From the IMG/VR virus record IMGVR_UViG_3300046673_000164, positions 426 through 64,425 of that record: a stretch of 64,000 nucleotides of DNA. One strand, given 5' to 3'. The notes beneath the pieces were generated by a model, which had not been told where the DNA came from, did no database searches, and was given only the letters and a program-made list of their open reading frames with translations. Source of the stretch: a virus. Taxonomy: Duplodnaviria > Caudoviricetes. A program made the position numbers and the translations under genes. Below, in pieces: positions 3,280 to 52,950 of this stretch (positions are counted from its first letter, which is position 1; each line of letters begins with the position of its first letter).

Positions 3280-3492
3280 CTATCCTCGTTTCACTGAAAC
3301 GTGAATCTTGATTGTCGCCCCCGGCGTGATTTCCAGGTCGAGCCCGTTTGCCAGAATCACCTGGCAAAGCTCGCGTAGTGGGCCGTCGAAAAAGCCGTCG
3401 GTCTTTGGAGCGTTCGGGGTAATATCCGATTCCCAACGATCTGTTTTAGTCCCAGTCGAGCCATCTGGTGCGTACCCACTAGGATTCATCAC
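3280..3492 (-). CDS. Hypothetical protein
   Basis: 70 aa ORF with RBS (GGAGGGG) upstream. Confidence 0.45.
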   Translation of the reverse strand: MMNPSGYAPDGSTGTKTDRWESDITPNAPKTDGFFDGPLRELCQVILANGLDLEITPGATIKIHVSVKRG

Positions 3493-25739: not shown

Positions 25740-26702
25740 CTAATCCTCGAACACGATTCTCCGTTTCGGGGCCTTCTCCAGCAGCTTGTCAAGGGCCGCT
25801 TGCACGCGGGCCATCTCACCAGCCACCTCGCCCCGAGCCACTGAACTCGTCCGCAGCTTGTCAGGCTTCTTCCCCTTGAGCACGTCGCGGGCCCGAATCA
25901 CCAATCCCTCCAGCTCAGCATCGCCGGCGATGTTCCTTGCTTTGAACAGATCGATGAACTCAAGCAGCTTCTCAACGGCCGTATCCTTGAAAACCTTCTT
26001 CTCGCCGTCCGGCGTCGGCTCCAACCGCTCGGCCAGATGCCCGACCAAGCTGCGGAAGGCGTCCCGCAAGGCCTCCTGTATGTCGTAGGCGGCATTCGTC
26101 CAGGTCTCCTCAGCCTTCTTCTTCTCGCTCTCCCACAGGGCCTTGCCGATCTTAGCCTCCGACGGCACGCCAAAGTCCAAGAACCGCCGCTCGACCCACA
26201 CCGCAGACCGTAAGGCACGGACACTGGGATAATTGCCGGCATCGAACTGATCCTTGAGCTGCTCTTTCGCATTCTCGACCAGCTTCGGATAGGCCTGGAA
26301 AAAGGCTTCAAACCTGCTGAGGTACTTGACCTCGGCCGCTTCGATCTTGTCGCTGATGTCGCCCACCATGCTGATCGGAACGAGGTAGGTCCCGCGGCGG
26401 AGCGGGCTCGGCAGGCAGCGGGCCAGCAACCAGCGGCGAAGCTCGCCGGCCACCGCCACGGCCTCCCCATACTCCTTGCGGTTGACAATATCCTTATTTA
26501 GCCTCAGCATGGTCTTGTCCGCCACGGTCTCTACCTTCCCCACGTCGGCCTTGCGGTAGATACCCGGCCGATGAAACACAAGATCAAGAACCACCACCTG
26601 ATCCATAATAGCCTTGGCATCCCGCACCGACACTTCCGATGCCGGGGTCGCGGCCGCCACTTCCTCTTTGATCTCGTCCAAACTCAATCTTGCGCGCACC
26701 AT
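25740..26702 (-). CDS. DUF3150-like protein
   Basis: CLPSPLRRGTYLVP...FFQAYP...FDAGNYPS pattern; follows the AAA ATPase. Confidence 0.55.
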   Translation of the reverse strand: MVRARLSLDEIKEEVAAATPASEVSVRDAKAIMDQVVVLDLVFHRPGIYRKADVGKVETVADKTMLRLNKDIVNRKEYGEAVAVAGELRRWLLARCLPSPLRRGTYLVPISMVGDISDKIEAAEVKYLSRFEAFFQAYPKLVENAKEQLKDQFDAGNYPSVRALRSAVWVERRFLDFGVPSEAKIGKALWESEKKKAEETWTNAAYDIQEALRDAFRSLVGHLAERLEPTPDGEKKVFKDTAVEKLLEFIDLFKARNIAGDAELEGLVIRARDVLKGKKPDKLRTSSVARGEVAGEMARVQAALDKLLEKAPKRRIVFED

Positions 26703-26749
26703 TTTCTGGTCTCCCTTGCTTATGCCTTGAGCGTTGTGCTCTCAGTCAG

Positions 26750-26791
26750 GAGCCCGCGGCGGAGTCGAACCGCCGGTCACCACTCGGGCTC
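26750..26791 (-). ncRNA. tRNA-like minihelix (acceptor stem plus T-arm)
   Basis: GAGCCCG-AGTGGTGAC-CGGCGG-TTCGACT-CCGCCG-CGGGCTC. Confidence 0.7.
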
Positions 26792-26800
26792 ACCACCCCA

Positions 26801-28255
26801 TTATATGCTGATCCTCCGTTTCGATCCAGCCTGCTGCCGACGATAGACGCCCGGTTTGCTGGCGCTGATATACTTGCCCTCAGCTGCATCCCTCGCGGCC
26901 TTCACGACCTCTGGGTTCGCCTTGCCGTTGCTGGAGGCGAACTGCAACACGTCCTTGAGCGAGCGGCCCATCTTCCAAGCCATCTCGCATATGTTGCGGA
27001 TGTCCGACCCACTCCAGTCCGTATCGTCCGGCTGCTTGTCCTTGGCGTCGATCTCGAACTTGCCCCGATGCAATTCCCACATCGCTGCCCGCTCCTCGTC
27101 GTCGGGCATATCGAACATCCACACTCCGTAGCGGAAGCGGCGGACCAACTCCGGCGGCACGTTCATCTTGTTCATGCTCGCCACAAAGAACACCTCGCGG
27201 CCGCCAATGGCGATCAGGGTCTTTACCACATTACGAACGTTGGCCTCGCTGCTGCCCACCAACCCCTCTTTCGTAGCGTTAATGTCGAACACCAGCGGCA
27301 ACCGATCAAAGGTGTTGGCCAGCGCCTTGCTGTAGAGGCTCTTGCCCGTACCGGGAGGGCCGAAGGCAATCTGCCCCGCCCAACCGTTGTCTTCCATCGC
27401 GGAGAGAAACACCTGAAGAGCGTCTTGGCTCGTTCCGCTCAAGTCTCCCTGCGAGCCAGCCATCGACTTTTCAAGCTCTTCGACCCGCACCACCACCGCC
27501 GGCGGATGGGGCCCGGTAAACAAAGCCTCGCCAAAATCCTTTGCGTTGCTCAACCCGCGAATGTCGTCGAACGTCTCGCTGCCCTCGTCGAAGGTCAGGC
27601 CCCGGCGCTCGATGGCCTTCCGCTTGCCCTGCCACAACTGGGCGATGTCCACTCCTTCTTTCGTCAGGGCCATTGCCAGCTCTTGCTCGGCGGAGAACGC
27701 TGACAAGCCACGGAGGGCTTGCACCACCCGCTCTAAGGTCGCCTTGTCCAGCTCACCAGCAGTCTCGACGGCGATCTCGCGCAGCCGGTCCTGGTCGGGC
27801 AGTGGCTCGTCGATCACCACCACGTCGCGGGCCAGCGGCTTCGGAAGCTGGTGGTCGGCGGCCAACAGAACGAGCATGCGCTGGTTCTGCTTGTATTCAT
27901 CCCGCAGATTCCAGCAGCCCTGCACAACGGGCAACCCACGGTCGAAGCATGCCTGCGAGTTGTGCCAAAACACCACGGTGCCGTCGGGATAGCTCTGAGC
28001 GGCGAGCAGGAAGGCTGCGGGGTCTCCCTCCGTGTCGGACGAGGCGTAGGTCAGTCCAGCCTCATTCACCGCGACCGTTCCGCGGCACACGTCCCACGCC
28101 AAAATCGGGGCATCTTCGTGGCCTTTGACGGTCGGCAGCACTTTGCCGATCTCTCGGATCGTCGAAGCCGGGTCGGGCGTGTTGATCGCCACCAGTGGCA
28201 CTCCGGCTCGGCAGGCCGCCCGGTACAAGTCCAGCCAGTTCTTTTGATTCTTCAT
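26801..28255 (-). CDS. Ycf46-like AAA ATPase
   Basis: WD...G N-domain, GPPGTGKS, VGSSEAN, PPELVRRF, SGSDI; likely start MKNQKN at 28255 (the track extension runs through a ribozyme). Confidence 0.8.
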   Translation of the reverse strand: MKNQKNWLDLYRAACRAGVPLVAINTPDPASTIREIGKVLPTVKGHEDAPILAWDVCRGTVAVNEAGLTYASSDTEGDPAAFLLAAQSYPDGTVVFWHNSQACFDRGLPVVQGCWNLRDEYKQNQRMLVLLAADHQLPKPLARDVVVIDEPLPDQDRLREIAVETAGELDKATLERVVQALRGLSAFSAEQELAMALTKEGVDIAQLWQGKRKAIERRGLTFDEGSETFDDIRGLSNAKDFGEALFTGPHPPAVVVRVEELEKSMAGSQGDLSGTSQDALQVFLSAMEDNGWAGQIAFGPPGTGKSLYSKALANTFDRLPLVFDINATKEGLVGSSEANVRNVVKTLIAIGGREVFFVASMNKMNVPPELVRRFRYGVWMFDMPDDEERAAMWELHRGKFEIDAKDKQPDDTDWSGSDIRNICEMAWKMGRSLKDVLQFASSNGKANPEVVKAARDAAEGKYISASKPGVYRRQQAGSKRRISI

Positions 28256-28276
28256 CACTTGGTCTCCGCCAGAGGA

Positions 28277-28335
28277 ACCTGCCTCGTCAGGAGCGGTAGG
28301 TAATCTCCGCTCGACGCCCCGAAGGGCGTTTCGGC
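28277..28335 (-). ncRNA. Hammerhead ribozyme, type II
   Basis: GCC-GAAA-CGCCC[TTCG]GGGCG-TC-GAGCGG[AGATTACCTA]CCGCTC-CTGACGA-GGC-AGGT; full core, GUC site, loop ACCT complementary to 3' AGGT. Confidence 0.92.
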
Positions 28336-28568
28336 TAGTGCTGATGAACGTGGCCGTCGTGGCAATGTTGCTCGAAAGCCTTTTGCATCGACGATCCCAA
28401 CTCCATCTTCGTTCGCTTGCGGCAGGTGGTCTCGCCACCCGCAAGCTCGTTGATCCGCTTTATCAGCTTGTCGGCCGATAGGTGGTTCTGCCCGCTGATC
28501 CCGTCCGTGATTATGCTGATCGTTCCGTCCTCCAGAATCTCGATCTTGATTTCGTCTTGTTGGGCCAT
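28335..28568 (-). CDS. DUF2997-like small protein
   Basis: IKIEILEDGTISI.TDGISG motif; sits between DUF1257-like and Ycf46-like genes; His-rich C-terminus. Confidence 0.65.
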   Translation of the reverse strand: MAQQDEIKIEILEDGTISIITDGISGQNHLSADKLIKRINELAGGETTCRKRTKMELGSSMQKAFEQHCHDGHVHQH

Positions 28569-28569
28569 C

Positions 28570-28881
28570 TCACCACCCTCCCTTCGCTGCGACCGCCTGG
28601 GTCTCGGTCTTCCACATTGGCTTCCAGTTCATCGCCTGGCAGGCCAACAAGACGGCCTGCTTGCTGTAGGAGCGTTTCAGGTCGTTGACTGTCCGCTGAT
28701 CCTTTGCGATCGCCTTACCAGCAGCCAAGTCGATCTTAATCACCCCCCGCATGTCGCTGAGGGTCACGTTGTTGCCGAGCCGGGTGAATCGATAGCCCAG
28801 CTCGACGGCCGCCTTCTCCAATAGGTCGACATGCTCGACCTCGAACGCGACCGACACGGTCTGTACTTGGTAACATGGCAT
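28570..28881 (-). CDS. DUF1257/Ycf35-like protein
   Basis: DLLEKAAVELGY...LKRSYS pattern; GGAGG RBS; start MPCYQV. Confidence 0.6.
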   Translation of the reverse strand: MPCYQVQTVSVAFEVEHVDLLEKAAVELGYRFTRLGNNVTLSDMRGVIKIDLAAGKAIAKDQRTVNDLKRSYSKQAVLLACQAMNWKPMWKTETQAVAAKGGW

Positions 28882-28900
28882 CACTTGGCCTCCAAGAGGA

Positions 28901-28959
28901 ACCTGCCTCATCAGCGCCGGTGGGCTAGGTCCGGCGGACGCCCCGCAGGGCGTTTCGGC
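28901..28959 (-). ncRNA. Hammerhead ribozyme, type II
   Basis: GCC-GAAA-CGCCC[TGCG]GGGCG-TC-CGCCGG[ACCTAGCCCA]CCGGCG-CTGATGA-GGC-AGGT. Confidence 0.93.
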
Positions 28960-29495
28960 TATTCACAATGGCTCTTGAGCGTCTTGGCCTGCGACGGAGT
29001 GATCGGAGCCGGCTCGCCCCGCTGCCCCTTTTTCCCGGCGAGCAACTGAATCTTGACCGTCGACATGCTCAGACCGTATTCGCCGGAAATGTCGGTGACG
29101 GCCGCGAAGGCGTCTTCCACATCCCAACCATTCTTTCCCATCCAACGGAGGACGGCAGTCACCGAGTAGTCAAACACCCTGGCCCGATGGACAATGCGGG
29201 GCGCCCGCTCTTTCTTCTCGGCCGGCGCGTCCTTATATTCCTCGGTTACCACCGCGCTGGTCGATCCGGAGCGCGCGTAGCCGTTGAAGCGATCCGCCTT
29301 AGCCAACGTCTCGTTGATTGCCTTCTGAAAGAGGCGGTCGGCGTGGGTCATCACCTCGACGGTCAGCTCAGCCGCATCAATTCGCTGTTCGGCCAAGATC
29401 GCTGCGTCCTCTTTGACGTGGTGTGGGTAGATTCCGTAGTGGTCGGCCAAGGCCGCAATCCGCACCGCCAACTCAGCTCTGATTTCGCTTTGCAT
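28959..29495 (-). CDS. Hypothetical early protein
   Basis: 178 aa, AAGGAGACC RBS; first gene after a sigma70-like promoter. Confidence 0.7.
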   Translation of the reverse strand: MQSEIRAELAVRIAALADHYGIYPHHVKEDAAILAEQRIDAAELTVEVMTHADRLFQKAINETLAKADRFNGYARSGSTSAVVTEEYKDAPAEKKERAPRIVHRARVFDYSVTAVLRWMGKNGWDVEDAFAAVTDISGEYGLSMSTVKIQLLAGKKGQRGEPAPITPSQAKTLKSHCE

Positions 29496-29855
29496 CGTAA
29501 GGTCTCCTTGTTCTCGCCTTGCGGGAAGTCCGCTCGGTCGAAGAGGCCGGGGCGGTCGCGAACCCGCCTTACGCTAACCGTCCTTGTAACTTGATTTGGT
29601 TTTATCTCCCTTCCCCCTATTCCCACCGCAGTGTGGCCACCGCGGCTGGTTTCGGTGTTGTTTGGGCCGGGTTGTCGGCCTCTAGGTTTTGGTTCCCCCT
29701 CCCCGACCCGATCTGCACCTGCCGCGTCATTGCGGCTTCCGGTGGATCGGGTCGGCTCAGTTTCGCCCCGCGTCTCATTTCCCCTTCATCGTTTCCCCCA
29801 CCTCTGGGGCCAGGTCGCGTTTTGGTTTGGTCTTGTCTTGTCCTCGTCTGCTTAT

Positions 29856-51552: not shown

Positions 51553-52950
51553 CTAGTACGGGTCGGACCAAGTGGGCGTGGCAACGTCAATGCTGCGGTT
51601 CTGGATCACGAACCTAGGATCGCGGACGGCAGGAATCCCCATCTCGTCTACGAACATCGAGAAGACCAATCCACGGTCGGCCATTTCATAGGAGGTCGGG
51701 GCGGCACGGGTTATGGTCAAAGGCAAGTTCTCGATGTACATGAACGCCTTCTTGAAGTTGCCCGCGAGCCACAGCTCATCGGCGGCCGTCACGCCGGTGG
51801 CCTGGATGGTGTCGCTGTTGAACAGCGACAAGTTCTGCTGCGTGTCGATCAGCTTGATGAGGCCGACCGGGTTGGCGTTCTGGTTGTAGTCCGTCAGCCG
51901 CTTGTAAGCGTACTGGCTGACCATCGGAGCGTTCCATTGTCCGCTGATCGGGTTCTTGCCGTAACCCAAAGGAGTGCCCACATCGGTCGTGTTGGAAAGG
52001 CTTCCTTGGCGCACCTGGGTGTCGCTGAGGATTTTCTCCATTGTCGCCTTGCGGGCCGGCATGACGATCAGGTCCTTGGCCTCGACGCTGATCGGCTGGC
52101 CGGTCTCGGGGTCGACCATGCGGCTGAAGTATTTGTAGACCGCGTCGAGGCAGGTCCAATCCGCGATCGGGTTCAAGAGCAGGTTCACCCACAAGCCGTA
52201 GCCCGCCTGGTTGGAAATGGCGTAGGTGTAGTAGTTCGTTCCATCGTAGGTGTAGGTGTTCTTGATGCCGAGCACCGTGTCCCACATCAAGTATTCCTTG
52301 CGGAGAGCCAGGGTTTGGCTGACCATTTCGGCGTGCTCCATCACCTGCCGGGTCAGGTCGAACATGATCGCTTCGCGGGTCACGTCGACGGCGTTCGCCC
52401 GGTTCTTGGTAATGGGCGTGGTCACGTACCGCTCGCTCATCTGGGCGCGCGGGTGCGTCTGGCCAGGCTTGCGCTCCTGGGCGGCATCCGCCGGCACGCT
52501 GATGCCGATGAACTTCTCTTGCACCTTGTTACTAGGCACGTTGGTGGCCAGTTGCGGGGCGAGGAACTCGGGGCGGTTGTACGCTTCCAGAATCTTGACT
52601 TCCAGGAGGCCGGCGACGGTCTCGTTATAGGCTGTGATGTCGGCGAACTGCGACGGGACGATGTCATTGCCTGCTTCCAGGACGTCGCCTTCCAACTCCT
52701 GGAACTTCGGCGCCGGCTGCGAAAGCCTCCGTTCGATATTCTGCTCGCCGAAAATGGCGCAGGCCAATCCCTTGAGTGAGACGCCGTCCGGCTTGATCTG
52801 CTGGCTTTCCAGCACGGGCCGACCCTCGGGATCGCGGTACTTGATGCCCTTGGCGTTGCGAAGGCCGAGTAGGCTGTGCATGCTACGGACAAATCCGACC
52901 GGGCCGCGGTCGGCATACATCCGTCGAGCGTAGTCGATCGAAAATGCCAT
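51553..52950 (-). CDS. Major capsid protein (HK97 fold)
   Basis: 465 aa, strong codon bias, VTREAIMFD, DPETGQPI, LIVMP, GNFKKAF, DPRFV; follows protease and decoration genes. Confidence 0.88.
   Translation of the reverse strand: MAFSIDYARRMYADRGPVGFVRSMHSLLGLRNAKGIKYRDPEGRPVLESQQIKPDGVSLKGLACAIFGEQNIERRLSQPAPKFQELEGDVLEAGNDIVPSQFADITAYNETVAGLLEVKILEAYNRPEFLAPQLATNVPSNKVQEKFIGISVPADAAQERKPGQTHPRAQMSERYVTTPITKNRANAVDVTREAIMFDLTRQVMEHAEMVSQTLALRKEYLMWDTVLGIKNTYTYDGTNYYTYAISNQAGYGLWVNLLLNPIADWTCLDAVYKYFSRMVDPETGQPISVEAKDLIVMPARKATMEKILSDTQVRQGSLSNTTDVGTPLGYGKNPISGQWNAPMVSQYAYKRLTDYNQNANPVGLIKLIDTQQNLSLFNSDTIQATGVTAADELWLAGNFKKAFMYIENLPLTITRAAPTSYEMADRGLVFSMFVDEMGIPAVRDPRFVIQNRSIDVATPTWSDPY

Follow-up and report, generated by a model that had tools for sequence, protein, structure and literature searches.

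Two type II hammerhead ribozymes bracket a small-gene pair in a phage genome and probably divide its transcript into separate mRNAs

Two type II hammerhead ribozymes, designated HH1 and HH2, were recognised on the minus strand of a 64,000-nucleotide (nt) stretch of phage DNA (the window). The window covers positions 426 to 64,425 of IMG/VR virus record IMGVR_UViG_3300046673_000164 (Duplodnaviria; Caudoviricetes), which is nearly all of the 64,425-nt record; the estimated completeness of the record is 63%. HH1 and HH2 lie on either side of a pair of small genes, which encode proteins of 103 and 77 amino acids (aa). Judged by their letters, both are bona fide type II hammerheads. They are quite probably active, and would cut a polycistronic phage transcript into separate messenger RNAs (mRNAs). 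The two ribozymes and the predicted products are as follows.

28897..28961, minus strand: HH1, type II hammerhead ribozyme (Rfam RF02276); its 5' end is the TAG stop of a 178-aa open reading frame (ORF)
28937/28936, minus strand: predicted HH1 cleavage site, after C28937, placed by the GUC position relative to the stems; the 3' product begins at 28936
28273..28337, minus strand: HH2, type II hammerhead ribozyme (Rfam RF02276); its 5' end is the TAG stop of the 77-aa gene
28313/28312, minus strand: predicted HH2 cleavage site, after C28313; the upstream product ends at 28313
28313..28936, minus strand: RNA between the two predicted cuts, 624 nt, carrying the 103-aa and 77-aa genes

Results

Sequence and predicted structure of HH1 and HH2

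HH1 (28960-28897, minus strand) was matched to RF02276 (Hammerhead_II) with 39.8 bits and an E-value (E) of 1.3e-4 when the whole 64-kb window was searched with cmscan against all families. HH2 (28336-28273, minus strand) was matched with 35.8 bits and E 3.8e-5 in a permissive cmscan search of a 1.7-kb stretch. The gathering score of RF02276 is 37 bits. Of 22 candidates scored across the 64,425-nt record, HH1 and HH2 alone match RF02276 at E ≤ 1, and the RF02276 cut-off was exceeded in none of 14 control genomes. A weak covariance-model match at 51783-51873 (plus strand; 13.6 bits, E 0.44) was taken as chance.

On the minus strand, HH2 is laid out as TAGCC-GAAAC-GCCC(TTCG)GGGC-GTC / GAGCGG(AGATTACCTA)CCGCTC-CTGACGA-GGC-AGGTTCCTCT...CCAAGTGATG. 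The layout of HH1 matches that of HH2, with CGCCGG/CCGGCG as stem I, TGCG as the stem III loop and CTGATGA in the core. Stem I together with its loop is CGCCGG(ACCUAGCCCA)CCGGCG in HH1 and GAGCGG(AGAUUACCUA)CCGCUC in HH2. Stem III is GCCC/GGGC in both copies, capped by UGCG in HH1 and by UUCG in HH2, and stem II is GCC/GGC in both, 3 bp long and open. The cmscan structure lines show a three-way junction in which stem I and stem III each end in a loop and stem II is open. Minimum free energy (MFE) folds recover stems I and III in both ribozymes, and the folding z-scores of the whole units are unremarkable (0.03 and -1.35).

The core of a hammerhead consists of CUGANGA, GAAA and an A15.1-U16.1 pair, and the chain is cut after residue 17, which is not G. 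HH1 and HH2 each have the complete catalytic core, namely CUGA(U/C)GA, GAAA, an A15.1-U16.1 pair closing stem III, and C17 of GUC. Position 7 of HH2 is C, a nucleotide that is frequent at this free position in an alignment of 78 sequences of the family (see below).

Three of the six stem I pairs differ between HH1 and HH2 on both sides (C-G/G-C, G-C/A-U, C-G/G-C) and all six stay paired. In the predicted structure these differences are compensatory. The initial annotation of the window had described the shared architecture, the stems, including a stem I of different sequence that is fully paired, and the loops; on re-reading of the letters, all of these statements hold.

The loop I pseudoknot

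In type II hammerheads, as described in the consulted text of Perreault et al. 2011, a pseudoknot of at least four pairs joins loop I with the bases directly 3' of stem II (PMC3088659). The tail that follows stem II is AGGUUCC in both HH1 and HH2. The claim that loop I keeps ACCT stands for the letters, which are present in both copies, and fails for their position within the loop, which differs. In HH2, ACCU is at the 3'-proximal loop I position that is standard in the family, and pairs with AGGU. In HH1, ACCU is at the 5' end of loop I and could pair with AGGU from there; in the family register, AGCC faces GGUU, with one G-U. Both copies thus keep a possible 4-bp pseudoknot.

Past the pseudoknot tail, many units of the family have CCUC or CUCC, followed 3-15 nt on by a Shine-Dalgarno (SD) sequence GGAG (28880-28905 and 28254-28281 in the window, minus strand). 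These bases could form a small hairpin in competition with the pseudoknot, hiding the SD; this pairing appears in MFE folds and is absent from centroid folds.

Support from related ribozymes in other phage loci

An exact-pattern scan of IMG/VR for this hammerhead subfamily returned at least 116 loci, a number that is not a census. An alignment of 78 distinct phage hammerheads was made from the matches listed, to which the comparisons in this section refer, and a covariance model was built from it. With this model, at least 184 ribozymes at E ≤ 1e-3 were found in at least 116 phage loci (96 and 88 in two sets of loci).

In the 78-sequence alignment, pairing is kept in 98.5% of stem I cells, and each of the six pairs shows changes on both sides. 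For the pseudoknot the corresponding figures are 69% of cells and four of five pairs. A covariation score of 0.420 was obtained, compared with 0.110 in shuffles (none of 500 reach it) and 0.058-0.094 when the partners are slid. In 100 unique ribozymes (matches listed plus the window), the complement between loop I and the tail averages 4.1 nt, compared with 2.57 nt with permuted tails, and none of 1000 permutations reaches the observed value.

The same 100 ribozymes have a characteristic position between genes. In 91 members, an upstream ORF ends within -20 to +8 of the ribozyme, and in 59 of these 91 the ORF either abuts the ribozyme or shares one base with it. Downstream, an ORF of 50 codons or more begins within 70 nt in 93 members, 80 of which have an SD-like motif. 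A stop codon that abuts or overlaps the start of stem II (59 of 91) would place the terminating ribosome on the 5' half of the ribozyme, and upstream translation might thereby influence cleavage.

Two to six ribozymes, always on one strand, are present in 38 of the 116 loci. Three duplicate loci (L061, L080 and L087) were set aside, and the spacing between successive ribozymes was measured in 36 multi-ribozyme loci, the window among them. Across 63 such spacings the median was 623 nt (interquartile range 363-912 nt); the spacing in the window is 624 nt. By this comparison, the two-ribozyme layout of the window is normal for the family, and the window is a genuine but ordinary example of it.

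Predicted cleavage and its products

Each ribozyme occupies one whole intergenic gap, from the TAG stop of the upstream gene to the SD and ATG of the downstream gene; the TAG stop of the 178-aa ORF overlaps the first base of HH1 stem II. The minus-strand polycistronic transcript would have the order 178-aa ORF, HH1, 103-aa gene, 77-aa gene, HH2, AAA ATPase gene, 320-aa gene. During transcription, stems III and I would fold and the 3-bp stem II would close, loop I would form a pseudoknot with the AGGU(U) tail, and the RNA would cut itself after GUC. The predicted outcome is three separate mRNAs.

Cleavage by a hammerhead leaves a 5'-OH on the 3' product and a 2',3'-cyclic phosphate on the upstream product. 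Each upstream mRNA would retain its stop codon; its 3' end, 22-24 nt beyond the stop, would lie in the GC-rich stem III hairpin and bear a 2',3'-cyclic phosphate. Specifically, the predicted end of the 178-aa ORF mRNA after the HH1 cut is 24 nt beyond the stop, in the stem III hairpin. Each downstream mRNA would begin with a 5'-OH and the stem I hairpin, and the pseudoknot tail, SD and ATG would follow within about 55 nt. In stability and translation, the small-gene pair would thereby probably be uncoupled from its neighbours.

The RNA between the two cuts begins with a leader of 55 nt, made up of stem I hairpin, core, pseudoknot tail and SD GGAGG; the 103-aa and 77-aa genes follow, and a trailer of 22 nt ends in the stem III hairpin. 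The initial annotation had placed the cuts such that double cleavage would free a 624-nt RNA (28936..28313) carrying both small genes; recomputed cleavage positions and length agree with it, and the end chemistry that it gave is established knowledge.

Within the excised RNA, a segment of the HH1 core, GCUGAUGA (28908-28915, minus strand), has its complement, UCAUCAGC, among the final codons of the 77-aa gene (28340-28347, minus strand). The predicted pair probability of GCUGAUGA with UCAUCAGC is 0.92-0.94 for seven of the eight pairs and 0.72 for the eighth. HH2, which adjoins the UCAUCAGC segment, has C at core position 7 and so escapes the equivalent pairing.

DNA and RNA contigs over the stretch

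In a peat DNA run that is not the source of the record, contigs cross both ribozymes with no differences (28155-28841 and 28829-29145), indicating that the arrangement is not an assembly artefact. At least 92% of the words sampled from region 28100-29300 of the window are present in each of 14 peat or permafrost metagenome runs, of which nine may be source runs. The near-complete presence of the stretch in the 14 runs indicates that the phage recurs in that habitat.

Three peat metatranscriptomic runs from three studies contain identical 151-162-nt contigs within 28453-28781, with no differences, although the runs were chosen because they contain this stretch and RNA libraries may include DNA. 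One more metatranscriptomic contig lies at 29579-29748, and contig sizes overall are 151-170 nt. The contigs within 28453-28781 are interior to the 624-nt fragment. Both ribozymes with their cleavage sites, the AAA gene and the 178-aa ORF are not covered, and such absence of cover is not evidence. The contigs contain no joint between the two ends of the fragment and show neither cleavage nor a circle.

The small-gene pair and neighbouring genes

The genes on both sides of the ribozymes are listed here in the order of transcription.

32062-30440, minus strand: SNF2-type helicase ORF, followed by small ORFs before the 178-aa ORF
28959..29495, minus strand: 178-aa ORF; a 56%-identical homologue directly precedes the AAA gene in the closest relative (L121)
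28570..28881, minus strand: 103-aa protein gene (MPCYQVQ...), start set by homologue alignment; distantly DUF1257-like
28335..28568, minus strand: 77-aa protein gene; N-terminus EILEDGTI conserved, C-terminus His-rich; weakly DUF2997-like
26801..28255, minus strand: AAA+ ATPase gene, 484 aa, matching PF00004 (E 1.8e-7) and phrog_8638 (E 2.2e-32; unknown function); first gene on the HH2 3' product
25740..26702, minus strand: 320-aa protein gene, fourth member of the AAA/320/103/77 set by co-occurrence in related loci
25696-25079, minus strand: sigma-70-like gene

The start at ATG 28911 given for the 103-aa gene in the ORF list, which lies inside the HH1 core, was rejected; the homologues align from residue 1 to ATG 28881, and M1, P2 and C3 are invariant among them. 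An exhaustive HMMER search with the 103-aa protein found 216 cluster representatives at E ≤ 1e-3. The initial annotation had labelled the two small genes DUF1257 and DUF2997. These labels are plausible as distant relationships and do not denote memberships, both proteins falling below the Pfam thresholds. Specifically, the 103-aa protein had no match to DUF1257 (PF06868) even at E ≤ 10, below its gathering threshold, and DUF1257 is matched by 3 of its 77 relatives at E ≤ 0.01 (best E 0.0017). Atlas leads connect the 103-aa protein to DUF1257 clusters with a feature score of 0.85 and a template modelling (TM) score of 0.69-0.75, below the Atlas naming bar. An AlphaFold model of the protein has a predicted local distance difference test (pLDDT) value of 87.6, and Foldseek returned no PDB neighbour of the model at E ≤ 0.001. 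A profile search of PDB sequences with the protein returned designed proteins only (E 4e-4 to 2e-3), and these matches were set aside.

The 77-aa protein matches DUF2997 (PF11211) with E 0.071 and 13.4 bits, below the cut-off of 24.1 bits and over the first 22 profile positions only; 4 of its 14 relatives match DUF2997 at E ≤ 0.1 (best 0.0012). Word-based homologue searches gave few relatives and no Pfam labels. Searches of NCBIfam and PADLOC gave no names for the small proteins and only generic AAA+ matches for the ATPase, and the 320-aa protein matched no family at curated thresholds. The C-terminus of the 77-aa family carries a His-rich motif, H-x-H-D-G-H-x-H in the window (28335-28370, minus strand) and six consecutive His in a related locus, L130 (3980-4036), which suggests possible metal binding.

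The gene set in relatives with and without ribozymes

Twenty-three viral loci (L121-L143) with a homologue of the 103-aa protein were collected by a search with an 8-sequence alignment; searching with the AAA ATPase as the only query protein yielded no related viral locus. A homologue of the 77-aa protein follows that of the 103-aa protein on the same strand in all 23 loci, and the high-scoring segment pairs are separated by no more than 274 nt in 20 loci; in the other three the gap is 348-638 nt. The ATPase and 320-aa genes are usually near the pair, in at least five gene orders among the 23 loci. The order AAA - 320 - 103 - 77 is found in 10 of the loci and that of the window, 103 - 77 - AAA - 320, in three; the others are ordered otherwise. 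The four genes (25740-28881 in the window) are a recurrent phage gene set of unknown function. In one relative (L093 5306-5395 / L124 1047-1136), the first ~30 residues of the AAA homologue are in another frame, owing to a frameshift or a sequencing error.

None of the 23 related loci has a ribozyme on each side of the 103/77 pair, and ribozymes at E ≤ 1e-3 are present within 3.5 kb in four of them. The ribozyme pair is not tied to the 103/77 gene pair. In the closest relative, L121 (42-63% protein identity), the order is 178 aa - AAA - 320 - 103 - 77 - sigma-like, and the gap between the 178-aa ORF and the AAA gene is 36 nt and ribozyme-free. In L130, a hammerhead-like element (3412-3486) lies directly upstream of the 103-aa homologue and scores 26.8 bits with the covariance model from the 78-sequence alignment. 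It keeps a 6-bp pseudoknot and has U-A instead of A-U at 15.1/16.1; this element is a putative variant or decaying hammerhead copy.

The ribozyme and its Shine-Dalgarno sequence as a repeated unit

The similarity between the two intergenic gaps of the window starts at TAG and stops at ATG, and covers the ribozyme, the tail AGGTTCCTCT, the SD and CCAAGTGATG. Two copies of a unit were delimited by pairwise alignment.

28879..28961, minus strand: repeat unit copy 1, from TAG stop to ATG, containing ribozyme, SD and CCAAGTGATG
28253..28337, minus strand: repeat unit copy 2, from TAG stop to the ATG of the AAA gene

The copies differ mostly in stem I and loop I. All four ribozymes of an unrelated locus, L005, have the same type of tail, and one of them shares the stem I strands of HH2. 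The ribozyme and its SD together make up an intergenic repeat; units of this kind are frequent in phage genomes and labile there.

Ribozymes with identical stem I and loop I were compared together with their flanks. In one group (L004, L007, L024, L062, L072, L078 and L110), the flanks are at the background identity of ~0.6, with three homologous ORF pairs upstream and one downstream. A second group (L115, L037 and L055) has no homologous flanks. L075 is related to L034 and L083 downstream of the ribozyme (0.87-0.88) and not upstream of it (0.60-0.61). From these sequences, the ribozyme-SD unit looks like a spreading cassette or a mosaic junction.

Discussion

We consider it likely that HH1 and HH2 cut the transcript of the window into separate mRNAs, and several points weigh against this reading. 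Cleavage of both ribozymes is predicted from sequence alone. HH1 is above the RF02276 gathering threshold and HH2 is 1.2 bits below it, and the pairing of HH1 loop I is shifted by one position relative to the family register and includes a G-U. In the 78-sequence alignment, stems II and III are invariant by construction, the loci having been chosen by pattern, which leaves only stem I and the pseudoknot informative; likewise, the window copies score high by construction with the covariance model built from that alignment. We infer a single transcript across the stretch from the tight spacing of genes on the same strand, and a scan for promoters and terminators (5 versus 2.3 and 9 versus 7.6 in shuffles) found nothing placed to define it. 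Relatives keep the four genes without ribozymes at these junctions, indicating that the gene set can work without processing. The 55.8-kb record of L121, which is 56% complete, contains no hammerhead at E ≤ 0.01.

HH1 and HH2 could be dead relics or structured repeats, that is, hairpin-rich intergenic repeats that do not cleave and are at most RNA stabilisers or terminator-like. The score of HH2 under the Rfam cut-off agrees with this, and the L130 element with its swapped 15.1/16.1 pair shows that degenerate copies exist. However, every core nucleotide is kept in both HH1 and HH2, the stem I changes are compensatory, and a possible 4-bp pseudoknot is kept in both; we regard relics as very unlikely. 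The hairpins were ruled out as terminators, as no T-run follows them. A different origin of the arrangement, which has somewhat more to recommend it and is still unlikely, is a rearrangement scar or portable linker: the invariant halves of the ribozyme-SD cassette would serve as recombination homology, and the 103/77 block would have been transferred to its place between the 178-aa ORF and the AAA gene. Ribozymes that also cleave would be consistent with such an origin. In the window, the 103/77 pair sits exactly at the junction that is ribozyme-free in L121, between the 178-aa ORF and the AAA gene, and is bounded by two stop-to-start copies of the unit, and the four genes occur in at least five orders among the 23 loci. 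In multi-ribozyme loci among the matches listed, tails are more alike within a locus (0.512) than between loci (0.415; none of 1000 permutations), and stem I/loop I sequences of 22 nt are shared letter for letter by ribozymes that lie between non-homologous genes in different phage contigs. On the other hand, stem I and loop I of HH1 and HH2 differ as much as those of unrelated family members, which argues against a recent simple duplication. The relatives have ~40-60% protein identity, at which neither the breakpoints nor the direction of the change can be read; the loci were chosen by pattern (at least 116 among the matches listed), and their counts are not a census; and the recurrence of identical units could be due to many paralogous copies within each genome and not to transfer. 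It is a tentative and rather improbable proposal that the hammerhead-SD unit drives the shuffling of gene blocks and that the pair in the window is the footprint of a translocation of 103/77 to the front of the AAA ATPase gene. That the ribozyme-bounded RNAs themselves move is far less likely.

The fate of the 624-nt RNA admits another possibility, in which its ends are joined by a host RtcB-type ligase or by the reverse hammerhead reaction, giving a circular mRNA with one chimeric hammerhead at the junction. The 5'-OH and 2',3'-cyclic phosphate ends fit RtcB chemistry, and, with stem II strands (GCC/GGC) that are shared, the 5' half of HH2 and the 3' half of HH1 could rebuild a complete hammerhead. 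However, the ends would be held by only 3 bp. The predicted end-to-end pairing, 8.26, does not stand out from that of 30 random 624-nt stretches taken from this phage (4.61, standard deviation 4.79). Neither RtcB (PF01139) nor RNA_ligase (PF09414) was found in the 64-kb, 63%-complete record. In the consulted text of Perreault et al. 2011, spliced or circular products of hammerhead clusters were deemed conceivable and were sought, and neither was detected ('data not shown'; PMC3088659). A literature search (hammerhead, bacteriophage, RtcB, circular RNA), by titles and abstract openings, found mostly reviews and engineering papers and no report of a natural phage circle. We hold circularisation to be highly improbable, and a linear two-gene mRNA released by HH1 and HH2 to be the likely product.

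As a single instance, the window adds little to what was described in 2011, when type II hammerheads bracketing genes of phage operons were reported (PMC3088659, consulted text). It is a clean test case, with only two ribozymes in the record and a defined 624-nt predicted product. Natural relatives with the same four genes and no ribozymes at the junctions mean that a comparison could show the effect of cleavage on the relative output of neighbouring genes. The packing from stop to SD, the similarity of units within a genome and the identical units between unrelated genes suggest that the unit spreads or mediates the exchange of modules, a proposition that is not stated in the consulted parts of three papers on these ribozymes (PMC3088659, PMC8782182, PMC6765202). 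The family-level observations would deserve a proper census.

Comparison with described hammerheads

Viroid, satellite and retrozyme RNAs also carry hammerheads, and two cuts give an RNA with 5'-OH and 2',3'-cyclic phosphate ends, which is ligatable and whose junction would rebuild a hammerhead. These RNAs are replicons or retroelement transcripts with extensive end-to-end pairing, and their ribozymes are mostly of type III or I. In contrast, the predicted RNA of the window is an ordinary two-gene mRNA, and its ends would be held by 3 bp. We know of no circle for phage hammerhead clusters. A literature search found no paper containing both 'hammerhead' and 'DUF1257'.

The type II hammerheads of RF02276, as presented in the consulted text, have the same core, looped stems I and III, short open stem II, pseudoknot and phage context (PMC3088659). 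Nothing substantial differs in the window other than the score of HH2, 1.2 bits under the cut-off, and the pseudoknot of HH1, shifted by one with a G-U. In Desulfovibrio vulgaris, three type II hammerheads cleave in vivo according to the consulted part of the cyPhyRNA-seq study (PMC8782182). They are of the same type and lie near hypothetical and phage-like genes; unlike the pair round a gene block in the window, they are single sites at three distinct loci (PMC8782182). A 2019 review, as far as its consulted passages go, gives the processing of polycistronic transcripts as a suggested role and the purpose as unresolved (PMC6765202).

The window is closest in layout to clusters described in prophages, where multiple hammerheads often flank single genes or short blocks and the identities of the genes are not constant (PMC3088659, consulted text). 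The flanked genes of the window differ from those of the prophage clusters, being the 103-aa/77-aa pair beside an AAA ATPase gene, and activity in the window is predicted only, whereas three tandem hammerhead arrangements cleaved in vitro in the 2011 study (PMC3088659). Other than that, the arrangement is alike. In Clostridium scindens, Azorhizobium caulinodans and the ardA triple of Agrobacterium tumefaciens, same-strand ribozymes likewise lie in successive gaps and a short gene block is released (PMC3088659). Perreault et al. concluded, in the consulted text, that such clusters imply the processing of long phage transcripts, and the role proposed for them is that these transcripts are cut into gene-length mRNAs (PMC3088659), as is predicted here for the transcript that carries HH1 and HH2.

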